Positions 1 through 8,241 of a stretch of DNA of 64,000 nucleotides are shown piece by piece. Under the pieces are notes generated by a model. The model had not been told where the DNA came from, did not search any database, and saw nothing but the letters and a program-made list of their open reading frames with translations. Positions within the stretch are counted from its first letter, which is position 1; every line of letters starts with the position of its first letter. Position numbers and translations under genes: made by a program. The stretch comes from an uncultured Ruminococcus sp. GTDB lineage: Bacteria > Bacillota > Clostridia > UBA1212. The stretch covers positions 19,952 through 83,951 of the forward strand of contig CADAZX010000016.1 in the NCBI GenBank assembly GCA_902792515.1. The letters are read 5' to 3'.

Positions 1-1586
1 TCGATGACGCTTTGTTCAAAATCATCATATTCTCTTGGCGTCTTCTCGGGCATATTATCTTCTATCTCCACCTGTTCGGGATTATCGTTTGGCATCACAT
101 CTGTCGGTTCAGCATTATCCAAAGAATACTCATCAGAAGACATTTCAGTTTCGTCATTTGCAAATTGATTGTTCGGGATAGTGGAATCTTGAATATCTTC
201 ATTTAAACTCTCTATGCCGTCTTGTTCATTTACAAGAATTGCTTCAAGTTCAGGGCTGTCTTCCGGAATCCCTGCTGCAATAAGTTCATCCCTAAAGTCG
301 ACACTGTCATCGCCATAATCTATAGGCTCTTCACCCATTTCTTGCAAATAGGCATTGTTAAGATTTTGCCATTCGGGATCCTTTGAGTATTCTGCAAAAT
401 CGGACTGATTATAGTCATGGTTTGTATAGTAATCATATAGGCGATCATATGCCGACGGTTCAGTGCTTTCCGGCATTGATTCTGAAGAGCCATCGTTTTC
501 GACATTCACGTCCCCAGATGTTACCCCTTCTGGCATTTGGTTATCCCATGTGTCTGCAGCTACAGCCTGAGGGGTCTCATCCAAATAATATCCATCATCG
601 ATGTCACCACCCGGAACGCTTTCTTCTCCCACGTCCGCGGACACATCCTGAGGCATCTCGTCCGAATACTCTCCACCGTCAATATCCCCATCCGGGATGC
701 TTTCTTCTCCTGCGTCCACAGATATATCCTGCGGCGTCTCGTCTAAATAGTCCACTCCGTCGGCGTCACTATCCGGAACGCTTTCTTCTCCTGCATCTGC
801 GGATATATCCTGCGGCATCTCGTCTAAACAGTCCACTCCATCGACATCGCTGTCCGAAATGCTTTCATCTCCCGTGTCTGCATCCACATCCTGAGGCGTC
901 TCGCCCGAATACTCTCCACCGTCGAAGTCGCTGTCAGGCGTACTTTCGTCCACTGTATCTGTGGATACATCTGGAGGAGTCGCATCCAAATAGTCTGCAC
1001 CATCAAGGTCATTATCTGCACCACCGGCATCTTCTATATCTTCCGGAATTTCCTGAGGGGCTTCATCTCCATAGTCGTCACTTCCAAAGTCATTATCCGA
1101 ATAACTGTCGTCTCCTACATCTTCTGTGATCTCCTGCGGCATTTCTTCTCCGGTGCCGTCACTGCCGAAATCACTATCCGAATAACTGTCATCTCCTATG
1201 TCTTCGGAAATATCTTGCGGCATTTCTTCTCCGTAGTCGCCACTTTCAAAGTCGCTATCCGAATAACTGTCGTCTCCTACATCTTCAGAGATATCTTGCG
1301 GCATTTCTTCTCCGTAGTCGTCACTGCCGAAATCGCTGTCCGAATAACTGTCATCCCCGATATCCTCTGATATATCATCTGGAACTTCCTCTGATAATCC
1401 GTCGTTAAAAGAATCATCCGCAGAGTATGTATCTCCTGTATCCTCTGGGATATCATCAGTATAATCCGCGTCCGAGAATGAGTCGCCTGAATAATCTTCG
1501 CTTGAATAATCCGTATCAGAAAACGAATCGTCGGCGGGGGCGCTATAATCCGAAGTATCTACACTTGCATCAAATTCATCGCTCAT
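1..1586 (-). CDS. Polyacidic tandem-repeat protein. The N-terminal 528 codons are present and the gene continues past the window edge.
   Basis: Absent from the ORF track because there is no stop inside the window. I translated the minus frame (plus-strand triplets starting at multiples of 3) and it stays open from the ATG at 1586 to position 3. An AGGA Shine-Dalgarno lies just upstream, only 12 nt after the stop of the 1599..4280 gene. The protein starts MSDEFDASVDTSDYS... and contains ten 27-aa D/E/S/Y-rich repeats. Confidence 0.75.
   Translation of the reverse strand, partial: MSDEFDASVDTSDYSAPADDSFSDTDYSSEDYSGDSFSDADYTDDIPEDTGDTYSADDSFNDGLSEEVPDDISEDIGDDSYSDSDFGSDDYGEEMPQDISEDVGDDSYSDSDFESGDYGEEMPQDISEDIGDDSYSDSDFGSDGTGEEMPQEITEDVGDDSYSDNDFGSDDYGDEAPQEIPEDIEDAGGADNDLDGADYLDATPPDVSTDTVDESTPDSDFDGGEYSGETPQDVDADTGDESISDSDVDGVDCLDEMPQDISADAGEESVPDSDADGVDYLDETPQDISVDAGEESIPDGDIDGGEYSDEMPQDVSADVGEESVPGGDIDDGYYLDETPQAVAADTWDNQMPEGVTSGDVNVENDGSSESMPESTEPSAYDRLYDYYTNHDYNQSDFAEYSKDPEWQNLNNAYLQEMGEEPIDYGDDSVDFRDELIAAGIPEDSPELEAILVNEQDGIESLNEDIQDSTIPNNQFANDETEMSSDEYSLDNAEPTDVMPNDNPEQVEIEDNMPEKTPREYDDFEQSVI
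546..1355 (-). repeat. Coding tandem repeat, 81-nt period, about 10 copies, inside the polyacidic gene.
   Basis: Repeat peptides include DDSYSDSDFGSDDYGEEMPQDISEDVG and EESVPDSDADGVDYLDETPQDISVDAG. The periodicity is visible directly in the DNA (recurring gatatatcctgcggc / gaataactgtc blocks). Confidence 0.8.
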
Positions 1587-1598
1587 TTTTAACGTCCT

Positions 1599-4280
1599 TT
1601 ACTTCCCGATAGAATTATTAATTAGCGTTTCAGTCACTCTAATTCTTGTGTTGTATTTTATTCTCCTCCAAAGATGAACTTTTACGCACGTTAAGAGTTC
1701 CTTTGTGAAGGGTTCATCGTTGAGTTCCTCGATTATCAGCTTTGATATATGAGAGAAAACTCCTTCAAGTAACCCAAAATCCGTTGCTCCCGTTTTTATA
1801 TACTTGTTGAAGATTCGACGAGATATTTCTCGCGCAAGAATTCGCCTAGAGTAGTCACACTCTTTTGTACAATACTTGCATAGATTGCACTGAGGATACG
1901 GTCTTAGCAGTTCCTTTTTATCTGCCCAGTATTTACTTAATTGTTTAATTCCTTCATCAGAAAGAGATATGCTAATGTTGTTCTCCAAACGATAATCCGG
2001 AGTTATAACCTCCTCGGGTTCATCTAACTTGTTAAAAAACAGATACGCCTCGCCTGGCTTTAGTTTTGCCATTCTTTGGATCTGAGCATCATTCATGTTC
2101 ATACTGTCTCCGATTATCTGCTTATCTGCCGCCTCTACAAGTCTGAAGACCATTTTCATATCAGTTAGCGCAACAACATCTGTTGTGACTTTTCTTGGAG
2201 ACTGATCCGCAATAATCAAACCAACGCCGTAAGAACGAATCTCTGCCAGCATCCGCTTTACCAATCCTTGTGCGATTGCACTTGGATTAGCCTCTCCTTG
2301 TCCCGAATTAGTGTCTGCATCAAGAAGGACATGTGCTTCTTCAAGCAATATTACGTTCTTTAGGCCGCCTTCGCCGACATAATTGGCATTAACATATGCC
2401 AAAATTGAAAGCAAAAGTAGCGAAATAATTAGCGCCTTTTGATCTGAATTCTCAATTGCTGCTAATTCTATTACAGTTGGCTTTCGCAGAATGTCCTCAA
2501 TTGGAATAGAATGATACGTGTCGAAAAGATTCACGAGGCTGTTAAGTCTTACAATTCCGGCCCTTCCGATATTTCGGGCATCACCAGTGTATCCAATCTC
2601 GTCAAAAGTCTGTTGAAAGCACTTAATAAAATCAGTTATGTTGAATACTTTCCCCTTATCATCAATCGTGTATGTGTCCAGCCACCTGAAATCAGAATAG
2701 CAGTTGTTAATTGTTTCCTCAAAAATCTTGTCGAGAGGAGTAGACATTGAAACTGCTGCCGAAAAAGCCGTCTTGAGCGTCGATTTGTATGTCTCTAATT
2801 TAACATTTTTTGGCGGGACAAACGGATTGAAGACAAACGGAGATATATAGTTTTTCCCAGGGGTAAACACTTGCAAGTCAGGTATGCTTTGAACCAATGC
2901 CCGGTACTCATTCTTTGCGGGTTCTATAACTAAGAATGGAATTTTGTGGATTTTCCAAAGTCTATCTAAGAGGCTGACTGAAAACGTTGTTTTTCCTGAT
3001 CCCGGAGTTCCAACAATAAGCATATGCTTTGCAAGGTCTTTAAGCGAAAAACCTATAGTATCGCCTTTAGACGACGCCCGAAGCTTTCCGACCTGAATAT
3101 CACCAGCGTTAATAATGTTGGAAGTATATGTTTTGGCACCTTTCCCCGATTCGTCGACATTAAGTCCGGCGCCAATTCGCTCACTACCTATAGGCAACCT
3201 AAAAAACTCAGCAGCTTCTTCGGAGGTTATAATGTATGGAAGCCTGTAATAGCTTTCAGAAAACAGCCCTGAATTCCAAATTTGATTGTTTCGATACTTA
3301 TTTAGTATTGTCTCGTTAACCGCCCATGGTAACGGGTAAAAATTCCTGTCCTTGTTGACTTCCTGTCGTGACAAATCAATCAATCTCAGATTTGCTGTGC
3401 CGTCCGGGCCTGTTCCAATCTGCCCGGAGAGAACGCCAGCAATATTAGACACTGCCGACTGATTGCCAAGAACAAGAATATTGAATGTAAACAGAGCTCC
3501 TGCCTTTTTTTGTGAGTAATACTTATAGTTTTGCGCATGCTTATCCGCAAGGGCAAAACTGATATTGCCCACGCCATGATCCATTATGCCTTTGTTTAGC
3601 GTTTCAAGAAGCTGTGTTACCTTGTCTATCTCTGTCGATTCAGCAGGATCCAAAACTGTTGGAATTAACTGCATAGAAATTGCGCAAGCCGGATAATCAA
3701 TTAACACATTAACTACCCTGCTAAAATCATTTTCCGTTATTGGAATTCGATCATAAGCATAGCAATATGGCAACAATTGATTCTGTAAACTCTCGACTTT
3801 TTCCTCTTTAATGACGGCCTTAATGCTCGAATCGTTTATGCCGGCAACTATCGTTGATAAGGCATCGTAGCCTACTTCAGAAAATCCGTATTTTTGAAGT
3901 GTAAGTGTGGATGCAATTAGATCCATTAAAACCTTTAGCGACTCGTTCGCTAAAGCGGCTTTCGCATCTATCACTCTCACAATAATGAAGAGTTTAATCT
4001 CTGCGTGAAACGGCTGATTTTTAACTTCACGAGTAGCCCAGAGAAGTTCAAAAGAGATATCCTTTGAATATCCTGCAGCAGAGCTGATAGTTTTATATGA
4101 CTGATAGACTTCATTCAACAGCGTTATTGTCCCGGTTTTGTACTTCCCGACAATCTCATCCAAAACGCCTTGTCTATCATCAATTATAGATATATGTGGA
4201 ATGGAGGTTATTTGAAAACATCCAAGTGATATAACTTCTCCGTTTGCCAAACTCTCCGTCGTCGTTTTTTTATAATCCAT
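1599..4280 (-). CDS. HerA/FtsK-superfamily (DUF87-like) P-loop ATPase with a ~400-aa unassigned N-terminal region and a C-terminal Cys cluster.
   Basis: Walker A is MLIVGTPGSGKTT, Walker B is NVILLEEAHVLL, and GLIIADQSPRKV follows downstream. The CNLCKYCTKEC motif lies near the C-terminus. ATG at 4280 has an AGAAGGA RBS. Confidence 0.75.
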   Translation of the reverse strand: MDYKKTTTESLANGEVISLGCFQITSIPHISIIDDRQGVLDEIVGKYKTGTITLLNEVYQSYKTISSAAGYSKDISFELLWATREVKNQPFHAEIKLFIIVRVIDAKAALANESLKVLMDLIASTLTLQKYGFSEVGYDALSTIVAGINDSSIKAVIKEEKVESLQNQLLPYCYAYDRIPITENDFSRVVNVLIDYPACAISMQLIPTVLDPAESTEIDKVTQLLETLNKGIMDHGVGNISFALADKHAQNYKYYSQKKAGALFTFNILVLGNQSAVSNIAGVLSGQIGTGPDGTANLRLIDLSRQEVNKDRNFYPLPWAVNETILNKYRNNQIWNSGLFSESYYRLPYIITSEEAAEFFRLPIGSERIGAGLNVDESGKGAKTYTSNIINAGDIQVGKLRASSKGDTIGFSLKDLAKHMLIVGTPGSGKTTFSVSLLDRLWKIHKIPFLVIEPAKNEYRALVQSIPDLQVFTPGKNYISPFVFNPFVPPKNVKLETYKSTLKTAFSAAVSMSTPLDKIFEETINNCYSDFRWLDTYTIDDKGKVFNITDFIKCFQQTFDEIGYTGDARNIGRAGIVRLNSLVNLFDTYHSIPIEDILRKPTVIELAAIENSDQKALIISLLLLSILAYVNANYVGEGGLKNVILLEEAHVLLDADTNSGQGEANPSAIAQGLVKRMLAEIRSYGVGLIIADQSPRKVTTDVVALTDMKMVFRLVEAADKQIIGDSMNMNDAQIQRMAKLKPGEAYLFFNKLDEPEEVITPDYRLENNISISLSDEGIKQLSKYWADKKELLRPYPQCNLCKYCTKECDYSRRILAREISRRIFNKYIKTGATDFGLLEGVFSHISKLIIEELNDEPFTKELLTCVKVHLWRRIKYNTRIRVTETLINNSIGK

Positions 4281-4324
4281 AAATATCCTTCTATTCCTAG
4301 AAAACTGATATTATTCAAAATAAC

Positions 4325-4352
4325 GGTGCAATCCCATAACAGGGACCACACC
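4325..4352 (-). terminator. Intercistronic hairpin that is strand-specific because of G-U pairs, followed by a U-rich tract. Possible attenuator or partial terminator.
   Basis: The minus-strand RNA reads GGUGUGGUCCC-UGUUAU-GGGAUUGCACC, then GUUAUUUUGAAUAAU. Three of the pairs are G-U on the minus transcript and would be C-A mismatches on the plus transcript. Confidence 0.35.
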
Positions 4353-4424
4353 GCTATTTCACTAAGCCCCTCCTAGTCGGGCAATCGCCAAAAAAACATT
4401 ATTGTCAGACAGCAAAACAGCGAA

Positions 4425-5636
4425 TTAATCATTCACATCGCCATAGCTCTTGATATCAAAAGCTGTAGCATCGCCTGTAACTGACTGGTAAATACCGTTT
4501 AAAGCAACTTGTTTTTCGATGAAAGCTCTTGTGGCCATCGTAAACGGTTTTAATATTTCCTCAAGTTTTTCTCTTTCTGCGCTTATCTTAGCATTGTAAT
4601 CCTTATTATTGTTCACCATTTTGATAATCGGGAAAACGATACCCGCAACCGGAAGCAGGGCTAGCAGTTTAAGGGCGCCGTTCAAGCAGAGGCAAATCAG
4701 TATGAGTATCACACTAACAATAATAAGAGCAATCCATAAACCTTTTCCCTTCGGTTTAATGCTGTTAATAACCGCATTTTGTGCGTCAATCTGACTCTTT
4801 CTCATTGGATCTACAAATGTCTGATCATATCTTGAGTATCTGCCTTTATAATCAAGCCAGACGGTCATCAATTTCTCGCCATACTGAACTGTGATGCGGT
4901 AGAGCGTGAGGTATACTCTTTGGACTGTGTCGATACGCACATTTGAACTGATGTGGCCATTCCTCGTATTCTGGTTCCGAATGCTGTTTTCAGCATTTGC
5001 TTTCAAAAGCGCCTCTGCGCGAGGTTTAACATCATTTTCAAACGCCGTTGCCTGAGGATAATTAAATTTGTTCATTTGAACATCGGCAGGAAGTTCAAGA
5101 TCTTCAATGTCTATCAAGTCAGAAACCGTCATAAGATCCGGGAATTGGTCGACCACACCCTTAAGATCTTTGTTGCCGCAAACAAAATATGTTTCACTGC
5201 ATGAAACAGCAGAACTGACCGGACTCCACTCCGTGTATCTCTCTGTGACTATACTGTCGCCTTGAATTTTTTGCCGCTCTCTCTGATAACCGATTTCATA
5301 ACTGTATGTTCCCGTTCCAGATGCCATAAACAAAAACATCGGAACACAAATATGCTCTTCCTTGACTATAGTTGCTCTTTGATAAACATCCAAAGGAGAC
5401 GCTTGCTCACTCGCAATTATGTCTAACACCTTTTTATGTCTTAGACTCATAGATGCATAAAGGTTAACGCCGGAGTTAATATTATCTTTCGCAAGAATCT
5501 CATTATTCTTGACCATATTCTCCAGTTGGTTAACTGTTCCACAGTAACTGCATTCTACTCTGTTTCCTGCAGCCTTATTTAAATTGAGGGCCGCCCCACA
5601 GTTAGAACAAACATACGCTTTGACTTGATTTGCCAT
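4425..5636 (-). CDS. Zinc-ribbon protein with two C-terminal transmembrane helices. First gene of the island operon.
   Basis: Start re-set to the ATG at 5636 (MANQVKAYVCSNCG...), which has an AAGGAAAGGAAG RBS. The ORF-track start at 5663 is a TTG. The zinc ribbon is CX2C-X15-CX2C. Hydrophobic spans are GLWIALIIVSVILILICLCLNG and LKLLALLPVAGIVFPIIKMV. Confidence 0.7.
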   Translation of the reverse strand: MANQVKAYVCSNCGAALNLNKAAGNRVECSYCGTVNQLENMVKNNEILAKDNINSGVNLYASMSLRHKKVLDIIASEQASPLDVYQRATIVKEEHICVPMFLFMASGTGTYSYEIGYQRERQKIQGDSIVTERYTEWSPVSSAVSCSETYFVCGNKDLKGVVDQFPDLMTVSDLIDIEDLELPADVQMNKFNYPQATAFENDVKPRAEALLKANAENSIRNQNTRNGHISSNVRIDTVQRVYLTLYRITVQYGEKLMTVWLDYKGRYSRYDQTFVDPMRKSQIDAQNAVINSIKPKGKGLWIALIIVSVILILICLCLNGALKLLALLPVAGIVFPIIKMVNNNKDYNAKISAEREKLEEILKPFTMATRAFIEKQVALNGIYQSVTGDATAFDIKSYGDVND

Positions 5637-5676
5637 AATAATGCTTCCTTTCCTTTCAAGCAATAATAATCCTCTA

Positions 5677-5700
5677 TGTCAAAAATGAAACTTTTTGACA
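5677..5700. repeat. hix-like recombination site A (TGTCAAAAA-TGAAAC-TTTTTGACA).
   Basis: Perfect 9-bp inverted arms with a 6-bp spacer and a central AA dinucleotide. Confidence 0.6.
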
Positions 5701-5861
5701 CTGAACAATATTTGCGAAGTATTAGAAAACAGTACTATTATTTGCATTACAGTAAGTCAAAAAGATAACACCCGAAAAGAAAAATCAATCCGTACCTTCA
5801 ATAGGGTTTAGTTTTTTTTAGTATTATGCAATTTATTAGGTGATTTTTGACAAGAAATCGC

Positions 5862-5890
5862 TTGACAGACGGCTGAATAACCGATATACT
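5862..5890 (+). promoter_or_regulatory. Consensus sigma-A-type promoter TTGACA-17 nt-TATACT. It faces away from the operon and is antisense to the recombinase gene.
   Basis: -35 at 5862-5867, 17-nt spacer, -10 at 5885-5890. No plus-strand ORF lies downstream. Confidence 0.65.
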
Positions 5891-5906
5891 TAAGCATAAG
5901 TAAAAG

Positions 5907-5930
5907 TGTCAAAAAGTTTGCCTTTTGATA
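5907..5930. repeat. hix-like recombination site D (TGTCAAAAA-GTTTGC-CTTTTGATA).
   Basis: The left arm is identical to site A and the right arm matches 7 of 9 positions. The 6-bp spacer has central TT, which is AA on the other strand. The site ends 3 bp before the recombinase stop codon. Confidence 0.55.
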
Positions 5931-5933
5931 ACT

Positions 5934-6557
<624 letters not shown>

Positions 6558-6586
6558 TCATTATATTAACACAGTCTCGGATCCGG

Positions 6587-6615
6587 TTGACACTCCCTCT
6601 TGATTTTGCTACACT
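6587..6615 (+). promoter_or_regulatory. Promoter TTGACA-17-TACACT for the 6700 gene.
   Basis: -35 at 6587-6592 and -10 at 6610-6615, about 85 nt upstream of the GTG start. Confidence 0.55.
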
Positions 6616-6699
6616 TTAGTCGGCAAAAAACATCACCCTGCCGCCGGCGCGCGGCGAGCGATTTTATAGAGTTTTATACGATTCAGGAGGAGATATACC

Positions 6700-8241
6700 G
6701 TGAAAAAAGTGATTGCAGTTTTGGCGGCGGTTGTTGTCGCGATGGCGGTTTTGGCAGTTTCGGCGCCGGTTTTTACGCCGGTTTTTGCGGACGAGACCGT
6801 GACCACAGGGGAGGCGCCCGTTGGAGACGGCGGGGAGACCGAGTATGTGAGGCTTACGGGCGACGGATTTGACCCGTATGCGACGTTTTCGTTCAGCGAA
6901 AATGGTGCGAACGCGTCGATCGATCCGGACACCGTGACGTGGGCGGCGATCCGCTACAGGATGGGCGCGAGGTTCAACGAGAACAACGTTGAGTATATTG
7001 CGCAGATGTACGTCAGCCCTGCCGCGGAGCCGTTCGTGCCCGTGCACTACAGGTTTACCGACGGGTGGGATACGCTCATCGTCGACATGACGTCCGTTGC
7101 GGCGCTCTACGGAAGGGAGTCGATCTGGGGTTCGGGCAGCTACACGAACACAGAGGAGATCAGGCTTGACCCGCTGGAGCCGGACAGGGATGCGGAGAAT
7201 TTTGACGACTCGACGGGGCGCGGAATCGTGACCGAAGGGGATTACGTCGACATCGCGTGGATCGCGTTTTTCGAAAAGGAGGAAGACGCGAAGGCCTACA
7301 CCGGCAAAGAGGACACGCCGTATTGCATTTTGGATGCGGGAAGCCTTTCGAGCCCCTACACGATCCACAATCTGAAGGCGGAATATATGGGCAGTGCGCC
7401 GGTAGATCCCGATGCGACTGAGGATCCCGCGGGCGAGTCTTCCGGACCGTCGGCGCTTTTCGCGTTCACGTATGAGGACTACGTGAACGACGCGCTTTTA
7501 GGCGGTAGCAAAAATCTCATTAACGACGTGTATTTCGGCGAAAAGTGCTACGTGATTGAGGTGGCACAGGGCGGAGACCCCTACCAGGAATTGAGTTTCG
7601 GCACGCTCGCGACGCTTGGAGACATCGATGAGATTTCCGCCGACGAAAACAAGGTCGTGCAGCTCGCGGTTCGCGTGAACACAACGGAGGGCGGCAAAAA
7701 CGGCTCGCTCTACTGGCAGACCGACGAAAACCCGGGCTACGGCGAGGCCCAGAACCAGACGTACAAGTACGAGGAAACGGACGGAATCCAGCTCGTGACA
7801 ATCGACTTTTCGCGCGTCAGGAAGTGGACCGGCACCGTCGGGAACCTCCGCTACGACATGTTTTTTGAGGCGGCAGAGGACACTTCGGTAGAGCTCTATT
7901 ACGCGGCTTTCTTTAAGGACGCGGCTTCCGCGAAGGCGTTCGGCGAAAAGTTCCTTGCGGAGGGACTGCCCGCGACGCCCGAACCGACAGAGGCGCCGAC
8001 CGCTACGCCTGCTCCGGAAGCGACCGAGCCGCCGGCTGAAGAGCCTACCCAGGCCCCTGTTGAGGAGCCCACAAACGAGCCCGCCGCGGAGCCTACCGAT
8101 GCGCCGGTTGCCACCGAAGCGCCTCAGAAAAAAGGCTGCGGAAGCGCGCTTGGCGGAATTTCCGCTGTTGTCGTTCTGGCGGCTGCCGGTTTTGGCGCAG
8201 CTTTTGCGATGCCGCGCAGGAACAAGGGCGAAAAGGAATAA
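6700..8241 (+). CDS. Secreted, C-terminally membrane-anchored protein of unknown function.
   Basis: GTG start with AGGAGG 9 nt upstream. Signal peptide is MKKVIAVLAAVVVAMAVLAVSAPVFTPVFA. A Pro/Thr/Glu linker leads to the C-terminal QKKGCGSALGGISAVVVLAAAGFGAAFAMPRRNKGEKE. Confidence 0.7.
   Translation: MKKVIAVLAAVVVAMAVLAVSAPVFTPVFADETVTTGEAPVGDGGETEYVRLTGDGFDPYATFSFSENGANASIDPDTVTWAAIRYRMGARFNENNVEYIAQMYVSPAAEPFVPVHYRFTDGWDTLIVDMTSVAALYGRESIWGSGSYTNTEEIRLDPLEPDRDAENFDDSTGRGIVTEGDYVDIAWIAFFEKEEDAKAYTGKEDTPYCILDAGSLSSPYTIHNLKAEYMGSAPVDPDATEDPAGESSGPSALFAFTYEDYVNDALLGGSKNLINDVYFGEKCYVIEVAQGGDPYQELSFGTLATLGDIDEISADENKVVQLAVRVNTTEGGKNGSLYWQTDENPGYGEAQNQTYKYEETDGIQLVTIDFSRVRKWTGTVGNLRYDMFFEAAEDTSVELYYAAFFKDAASAKAFGEKFLAEGLPATPEPTEAPTATPAPEATEPPAEEPTQAPVEEPTNEPAAEPTDAPVATEAPQKKGCGSALGGISAVVVLAAAGFGAAFAMPRRNKGEKE

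Follow-up and report, generated by a model that had tools for sequence, protein, structure and literature searches.

The DNA analysed here, referred to throughout as the window, is a stretch of 64,000 nt from an uncultured Ruminococcus sp. (assembly GCA_902792515.1, contig CADAZX010000016.1, positions 19,952-83,951). Within it, a gene for a small serine recombinase and a multi-gene operon lie on the same strand, separated by a short DNA segment that carries a promoter and is bounded by two dyad sites in inverted orientation. The promoter currently faces away from the operon, a state termed OFF, and the flipped state is termed ON. The site pair, the flipped contigs and the conservation of the arrangement across 47 related loci together lead us to read the segment as a promoter inverton. 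The features that make up the locus are these.

5676-5701, no strand: site A, operon-proximal crossover site, 26 bp, ATGTCAAAAATG-AA-ACTTTTTGACAC
5677-5700: 24-bp form of site A, read from the sequence, TGTCAAAAATGAAACTTTTTGACA
5906-5931, no strand: site D, recombinase-proximal crossover site, 26 bp, GTGTCAAAAAGT-TT-GCCTTTTGATAA
5907-5930: 24-bp form of site D, read from the sequence, TGTCAAAAAGTTTGCCTTTTGATA
5688-5919, no strand: invertible segment, central dinucleotide to central dinucleotide, 230 bp centre-to-centre
5862-5890, plus strand: sigma-70-type promoter TTGACA-17-TATACT, matching 11 of 12 consensus positions
5637-5675, minus strand: fixed operon leader with Shine-Dalgarno AAAGGAAAGGAAG before the ATG at 5636
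5934-6530, minus strand: small serine recombinase, 198 aa (Pfam Resolvase PF00239, 1.8e-28)
4425-5636, minus strand: first cargo gene, 403 aa, with a zinc ribbon at the N-terminus and a membrane segment at the C-terminus, no family match
1599-4280, minus strand: second cargo gene, 893 aa, HerA/FtsK-type P-loop ATPase (Pfam DUF87, 5.7e-10)
3-1586, minus strand: first 528 codons of the third cargo gene, which encodes 768 aa on the full contig

The inner half-sites of A and D are identical (GTGTCAAAAAGT) and the outer half-sites are unlike each other, with AA at 5688-5689 and TT at 5918-5919 as the respective central dinucleotides. A repeat finder aligns the two sites as an inverted repeat of 24 nt at 88% (5679-5702 against 5905-5928), compared with only 73% in direct orientation. 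Across the 64-kb window the pattern TCAAAA-N8-TTTTGA has two exact matches, which are sites A and D, and with up to one mismatch it has three against 0.31 expected, a number reached by none of 100 shuffles. The third, single-mismatch match, TCAAAAGAGATATCCTTTGA at 4048-4067, lies inside the gene for the HerA-type ATPase and is probably due to chance. Four of the five copies of TGTCAAAAA in the window fall in 5677-5915. Site D in its 24-bp form ends 3 bp from the recombinase stop codon (2-3 bp for the 26-bp form), a placement that recurs in most of the 47 related loci.

Both orientations of the segment exist in nature for the window allele. Contigs were gathered from many rumen and gut metagenomes by exact-protein look-ups with the recombinase and its 97-99% variants; the window itself comes from sample ERZ27280566. 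Inversion of 5688-5919 in silico yields a sequence that is identical at 379 of 380 nt to contig L104 over a span that opens at the end of the recombinase gene and extends into the first gene of the operon, whereas the uninverted window matches at only 237 of the same 380 positions. The one mismatch, A against G, is a polymorphism of the outer half-site of D. L104 is a gap-free contig of 8.8 kb from sample ERZ27257202 that spans both junctions, and L105, from another sample, agrees with the flipped form at 192 of 193 nt. A 10%-diverged allele is flipped in L011, a contig that carries a 10-N scaffold gap inside one site. A third allele, with the same recombinase and chromosomal locus and with Hsp70/MreB-like cargo, is OFF in five samples, and two others hold it ON (contigs L107 and L108). 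Counted by sample, there are 15 OFF and 6 ON contigs, the latter comprising three different alleles flipped in six different samples. In all flipped contigs the outer half-sites are unmoved and the inner flanks are exchanged, so that the outer half of site A stays next to the operon in both orientations while its inner half swaps. This places the point of exchange within the 14 nt common to both sites (AA+ACTTTTTGACAC), consistent with cleavage at the central dinucleotide. The repeats shared by the two sites, at 14-24 nt, are far shorter than the assembler k of 87-141, and the flipped junctions are therefore real. The segment is retained in all 27 close-relative loci with a readable junction.

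Further contigs are of note for where they end or for how they are joined. The inner edge of site A, where the assembly graph would be expected to branch, is the exact starting point of L100 and L101, and L018, L021, L031, L016, L003, L100, L101, L105 and L107 all have a contig end on a crossover site or just within it, a pattern expected with both orientations in the sampled population. Contig L005 (coordinates 90-1736 and 2412-2771) has an ON junction beside the recombinase followed by an OFF junction in reverse, a hairpin-like chimera as expected of a graph holding both states. It also has a UPF0236-family transposase, an insertion sequence (IS) element, just upstream of the recombinase gene, and its second site has a palindromic AT core (GTATGC) in place of TT. 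Being hairpin-like and having this odd core, L005 was kept out of the primary evidence. Compared with window positions 5812-7359, contigs L007, L008, L012, L013 and L106 represent the same locus, with the recombinase gene and the gene for a 513-aa protein described below, and have the other, Hsp70/MreB-like cargo. Their homology to the window ends inside the invertible segment, at about 5812-5845, which suggests replacement of the cargo downstream of the promoter half.

In a consensus scan of 5400-6800 the promoter at 5862-5890 is the best promoter-like site, and no minus-strand promoter is reported. It presently faces the 3' end of the recombinase gene, and inversion moves it to 5745-5717 on the minus strand, where the -10 box stands 80 nt from the ATG in the ON contig L104. 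Both hexamers are kept in the 10%-diverged allele, and the Hsp70-type allele, which is otherwise unalignable over this region, has a promoter at the same position. Consensus quality and positional conservation argue for an active promoter. In the OFF state it would transcribe antisense through the recombinase gene, no terminator being predicted. An Rfam scan of 5300-6900 gave no RNA family match. A first-pass annotation of this DNA, made from its letters, had proposed much of this arrangement, and what it stated about the sequence is confirmed throughout. The two dyad sites in inverted orientation with AA and TT at their centres are borne out by the repeat alignment and the pattern search, and the proposal that the segment is invertible and now OFF is answered by flipped alleles, exactly as predicted, in independent assemblies. 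A search for flipped copies at related loci, put forward there as a check, finds them in L104, L105, L011, L107 and L108, and the crossover predicted at the central dinucleotide falls within the 14-nt stretch that includes it. Likewise, the only consensus promoter of the intergenic region was said to lie within the segment and to point off the operon, which agrees with the 11/12 match and the lack of a minus-strand alternative in the scan, and its predicted position after a flip, about 80 nt upstream of the first operon gene, is the geometry seen in L104.

The arrangement is not particular to this species. A scan of one genome per species gave 80 loci whose recombinases are 61-73% identical to that of the window and whose hosts are nearly all Clostridia, among them Lachnospiraceae, Oscillospiraceae, Acutalibacteraceae and Ruminococcus. 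Some of these family members are carried by cultured bacteria, namely Faecalicatena faecalis AGMB00832 (L058), Lachnospiraceae isolate MGBC000119 (L046) and the Oscillospiraceae isolates MGBC000104 (L073) and 42-9 (L081). At 47 independent loci a first site lies no more than about 30 bp from the recombinase stop codon and a second site 127-230 bp downstream. The family consensus, nT(G/A)TCAAAA(G/A)GT-NN-AC(C/T)TTTTGA(C/T)An, is palindromic save for the central dinucleotide. Core pairs are asymmetric and complementary in 45 of the 47 (GT/AC 39, AA/TT 5, CT/AG 1) and palindromic in two; none is direct, where roughly half would be expected to be so if core orientation were irrelevant. The two palindromic cases, L029 and L069, have such cores in both sites (GC, AT), and because palindromic cores alone cannot separate inversion from deletion, directionality at these loci would have to come from something else. 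In L019, L044, L081 and L087 the site nearer the recombinase extends over the final codons or the stop codon of its gene, and inversion there would rewrite the extreme C-terminus of the recombinase.

The inner segments of the family loci are mutually unalignable. No opposite-orientation pairs of related inner segments were found among the 80 species-representative genomes because the segments are too diverged, and orientation was judged by promoter position instead. The segments hold a promoter of the form TTGAAA/TTGCAA-17-(TG)nTATAAT about 25-35 nt from one site. By score it is directed towards the recombinase in 19 loci and towards the cargo in five, with 20 ambiguous; by eye, most of the ambiguous loci have a positionally conserved promoter towards the recombinase. 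In L020, L040, L044, L055 and L078 it is directed towards the cargo. An excess of OFF is present both in the close contigs, at 15:6, and among the species representatives, at roughly 39:5. Beyond the second site the next gene shares the strand of the recombinase at almost all loci, whereas genes upstream of the recombinase show no strand preference (26 co-directional, 15 divergent), which identifies the downstream gene as the regulated target. Its products include surface proteins (BspA-type leucine-rich repeat, SLH, VWA and InlB-repeat proteins), glycan functions (glycosyl- and glycerophosphotransferases, LicD, GtrII) and phage defence (BREX BrxA/BrxB, type IV restriction enzymes, PD-T4-6, mad6/mad8, PbeA), which are the classes that phase variation usually controls.

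The distance between the sites is strongly phased. Centre-to-centre spacings fall into classes of 127-128, 135-139, 145-148, 155-160, 166, 176-177, 188, 200, 223 and 229-230 bp, and a Rayleigh scan (n=47) finds a period of 10.3-10.4 bp (about 10.35) with R=0.71, a value reached by none of 3000 sets jittered by up to 5 bp either way (p<1/3000). R is still 0.68 once the dominant 135-139 class is left out, and counting each distinct length a single time gives p=0.0007. The window segment, at 230 bp or 22.2 turns, fits the series. Within the family segments AA/TT dinucleotides recur with a periodicity of 10.3-10.5 bp, at a mean power of 0.9 against 0.23 in control intergenic DNA of the same loci (Mann-Whitney p=8e-11), a signal that may owe something to promoter and UP-element architecture. 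The A/T tracts keep phase with the centres of the sites (R=0.44, n=251), more strongly so in the half of the segment upstream of the promoter (L017-L096). Together, the spacing phase and the phased A/T tracts suggest that both sites need to lie on one face of a small, partly pre-bent loop. Two motifs resembling half-sites lie inside the window segment.

5756-5764, no strand: internal motif resembling a half-site, GTCAAAAAG, at a distance of 71.5 bp from the site A centre
5844-5852, no strand: internal motif resembling a half-site, TTTTTGACA, at a distance of 70.5 bp from the site D centre; the -35 box follows 10 bp downstream

They are placed symmetrically, about 71 bp from each crossover site, and both have counterparts at similar positions in the otherwise different Hsp70-type segment, where CGCAAAAGG, similar to GTCAAAAAG, lies at about 73 bp. 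The 5844-5852 motif is kept in the L004-type and L007-type segments.

The recombinase gene begins with an ATG preceded by a GGAGG Shine-Dalgarno, and its product has the active-site Ser11 in YVRVST, a DRLGRN motif, an FGRPRL arm and a C-terminal helix-turn-helix. Close homologues also match PF02796 (HTH_7). The first-pass annotation was right about a 198-aa serine recombinase with a catalytic serine, a GRPR arm and a stop codon 3 bp from site D. Its description of the system as Hin/Gin-style stands for mechanism and site geometry and fails for family membership, as Sin and gamma-delta are favoured over Gin by score. The best characterised match is Sin/Tn552 Bin3, for which a structure is solved (98.8 bits, 2.7e-27), followed by gamma-delta resolvase (79.4 bits, 2.5e-21), Tn3 resolvase (72.7 bits) and Gin (55 bits, 5.5e-14), and membership of the Hin/Gin group by sequence was rejected because the first three all outscore Gin. 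Alignments to Sin and gamma-delta cover the active-site serine and the GRP motif, and the identity of the enzyme to plasmid resolvases of Staphylococcus, Enterococcus and Bacillus is about 50%. The NCBIfam Mpi model NF009949 gives 40.7 bits, under its cut-off of 272, and membership of the Mpi family was likewise rejected.

Our results provide a model for how the operon may be switched. By analogy with Hin-type invertases, which share the 26-bp dyad sites, the T-TCAAAA half-site, the asymmetric 2-bp core and the GRPR arm, recombinase dimers would bind both dyad sites and synapse them across the 230-bp loop. Both sites would be cut at the central AA/TT and rejoined after subunit rotation, flipping the segment. 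The half-site presumably suits a recombinase with a GRPR arm and a helix-turn-helix, as for Hin. In the OFF state the segment promoter would fire towards the 3' end of the recombinase gene, and in the ON state, 80 nt upstream of the ATG at 5636, it would read through site A into the operon. OFF-state transcription, being antisense to the recombinase gene, may bias the switch towards OFF. The observed OFF excess fits such antisense damping and equally an expression cost of the cargo. To our knowledge Fis is confined to the proteobacteria and should be missing from Clostridia hosts; looping would more plausibly be assisted by a nucleoid protein together with the geometry of the DNA than by an enhancer bound by Fis.

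The operon under this control is longer than the three genes described in the first-pass annotation, which are only the part within the window; the source contig adds at least seven co-directional genes. The 893-aa ATPase matches PADLOC mad8 (6.6e-18) and several HerA models, with NCBIfam CedD and HerA matches below cut-off. The third cargo protein is very acidic, contains 27-aa tandem repeats (81 nt; window 550-1376) and has no family match. Beyond it on the full contig are genes for a 163-aa protein, a 382-aa SPFH/Band-7 protein with a SHOCT tail, proteins of 225, 301 and 294 aa, a 397-aa adenylosuccinate-synthetase-like (PurA-like) protein and a protein of more than 500 aa. The operon therefore has at least 10 genes on one strand over at least 15 kb. 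It is horizontally acquired and lies in a low-GC island (about 40% against 58% for the host genome) that extends over window 1-6550 and, for at least 15 kb in all, over 7600-22682 of L097, with the recombinase at the island edge. A cargo function in defence or at the envelope is plausible. A metagenome scan (JGI) with the first cargo protein returned one locus, already known, and no orientation data. On the other side of the recombinase gene are the following features.

6560-6571, minus strand: putative extended -10 promoter of the recombinase gene, TGTTAATATAAT, weak and identified by eye
6587-6615, plus strand: TG-extended promoter TTGACA-17-TACACT of the 513-aa protein gene, diverging from the recombinase gene
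6700-8241, plus strand: gene for a 513-aa protein with signal peptide, PT-rich linker and C-terminal anchor, in host-GC DNA outside the island

The extended -10 at 6560-6571 was not reported by the consensus scan.

Several observations weigh against a promoter inversion switch run by the adjacent recombinase. The nearest characterised relatives of the enzyme, Sin and gamma-delta, are resolvases rather than invertases, and its assignment as the catalyst comes from adjacency to the sites, at 47 loci. Its sequence affinities would fit an enzyme that deletes or resolves, with A and D forming a res-like site of a mobile element or plasmid, and the roughly 50% identity to plasmid resolvases and the additional half-site-like motifs inside the segment could be taken in the same sense. 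In a res-like arrangement, however, one would not look for cores that are inverted here and complementary in 45 of 47 pairs with none direct, for flipped alleles, or for a promoter inside the segment with co-directional cargo beyond it. None of the 27 readable close-relative junctions lacks the segment and no transposase accompanies the module in the window, and we regard resolution or deletion as very improbable. A different recombinase acting in trans is less improbable, though still unlikely, and would leave the adjacent gene as a bystander or with some other function, island mobility for example. Mpi is one of the known master invertases that work from a distance, and the genome is visible only as a 64-kb window. 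Mobilisation has also been proposed as one role for such recombinases in the RADS study (PMC13552941). Yet a site lies within about 30 bp after the stop codon in most of the 47 loci in spite of unrelated cargo and inner sequence, and there is no second site pair in the 64-kb window. The fit of the T-TCAAAA half-site to an enzyme with a GRPR arm and helix-turn-helix, judged from Hin, also favours the neighbouring gene product.

Other points concern what the promoter does and how the contigs were built. The 5862-5890 promoter is the presumed main driver of the operon; no terminator was found, and the recombinase promoter may therefore also read through into the operon. The present orientation might instead mainly serve the PT-rich surface protein of 513 aa (6700-8241, plus strand) by read-through, making the segment a toggle, as this gene and the 5862-5890 promoter share a strand with no terminator predicted between them. 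Against this, upstream neighbours across the family are unbiased in strand (the ground on which an OFF-state toggle of the upstream gene was rejected), the 513-aa gene has its own promoter at 6587-6615 and is situated beyond the island in DNA of host GC, and in L005 an IS element intervenes between promoter and gene; such a toggle is improbable, and only marginally less so than resolution. Most improbable of all is that the flipped contigs are artefacts of assembly across inverted repeats. The hairpin-like chimera in L005 and the 10-N gap inside one site of L011 speak for this, but repeats of 14-24 nt are far under the assembler k of 141 and 87, L104 crosses both junctions without a gap, and three alleles are flipped in six samples. 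Mixed orientation within one population is suggested by the L005 chimera and by contig breaks at the sites. The 204-bp inner segment of the window is without the AA/TT periodicity of the family (power 0.13), and no known complete defence system was recognised in the operon, the sole defence-type match being the HerA-type ATPase (PADLOC mad8). With these points taken into account, a promoter inverton operated by the adjacent small serine recombinase remains a very probable account of the locus.

Taken alone, the window locus is a new inverton of a familiar kind. The family is unusual in its Sin-like enzymes, its stop-abutting site, its very short phased segments and its portability before both defence and surface cargo. 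A wider reading is attractive and falls a little short of probable, namely that the locus belongs to a very large, undescribed Clostridia family of self-contained phase-variation cassettes, each a Sin-like recombinase gene that ends directly at a promoter-bearing mini-loop of 127-230 bp, pre-bent and helically phased, with inversion gated by loop geometry, state-dependent switching and a link to defence islands. If so, surface proteins, glycan genes, phage defence and nearly any other cargo could be put behind the cassette. Inversion would be gated by whole numbers of helical turns, by A/T tracts in phase and perhaps by HU, in place of a Fis enhancer. Switching rates would depend on state, as the OFF promoter is convergent with the recombinase gene, and there would be a mechanistic reason for small serine recombinases to mark defence islands. 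An active switch would mean that a large foreign operon is expressed in part of the population and that one assembly displays one of two states. The module stands before surface, glycan and anti-phage genes in dozens of gut and rumen Clostridia species, a class little studied for phase variation compared with Bacteroides. It offers a natural data set on synapsis by serine recombinases of sites only 127-230 bp apart, and a compact self-contained switch could serve as a genetic tool in Firmicutes.

The role of small serine recombinases beside defence systems was an open question in 2026, to which the module offers a testable answer. Andersen et al. 2026 (PMC13552941) describe such recombinases as markers of anti-phage defence (RADS), state that their function is unknown and mention inversion only as a possibility. 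As in RADS, a small serine recombinase stands directly before co-directional cargo, which has the HerA-type ATPase as its defence-type match in the window and BREX, type IV restriction and PD-T4-6 in other family members; in contrast, the inverton is explicit here and the family cargo extends to surface and glycan genes. The RADS bait EF_B0058 (pTEF2) was considered as an instance of the same module and rejected, being 33% identical, only 54 bp from the next gene and without a site pair. Serine recombinases are mentioned in neither the hCom2 inverton catalogue (PMC11892184) nor DeepInverton (PMC11602134). The hCom2 catalogue links Clostridia group 139 to tyrosine recombinases, and the site motif is absent from its text supplements. 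No description of a family of recombinases paired with mini-invertons was found in the literature searched, an absence that is limited to the literature covered and is no proof, and the family is undescribed as far as we could find.

Among characterised systems the closest in arrangement are Hin/hix, Gin/gix, Cin and Pin, in which a small serine recombinase with a GRPR arm and helix-turn-helix likewise moves a promoter by inversion. The hix sites are also 26-bp imperfect dyads with a T-TCAAAA half-site and an inverted, asymmetric 2-bp core, and hix has the same AA/TT core. The segment that Hin inverts is about 1 kb long and includes the hin gene, and the reaction requires a Fis-bound enhancer of 65 bp (PMC3798978), whereas here the recombinase gene lies outside a segment of 127-230 bp. 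The enzyme also differs from Gin, with 55 bits to Gin against 99 bits to Sin. By sequence the closest relatives are Sin, the Bin and beta recombinases and the gamma-delta/Tn3 resolvases. Their substrates are res or six sites made up of several subsites, as a rule directly repeated, and the outcome is resolution, in contrast to the two single inverted dyad sites, the intervening promoter and the two orientations seen here. The beta recombinase can invert as well as resolve, helped by an HU-like protein. The switch resembles Mpi of Bacteroides fragilis, which flips promoter segments of about 200 bp before surface-structure operons. Mpi is a serine invertase that acts in trans on many dispersed sites, whereas the present module appears to be a one-to-one arrangement in cis, with another repeat motif and only this site pair in the 64-kb window. 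Short promoter-bearing invertible elements with ON and OFF states are also known from fimS (FimB/FimE, Escherichia coli) and the RecV switches of Clostridioides difficile, although these use tyrosine recombinases, with other chemistry and other sites. Expression of fimE depends on the orientation of the switch, which parallels the antisense arrangement proposed here, in which the OFF promoter would oppose the gene for its own recombinase.

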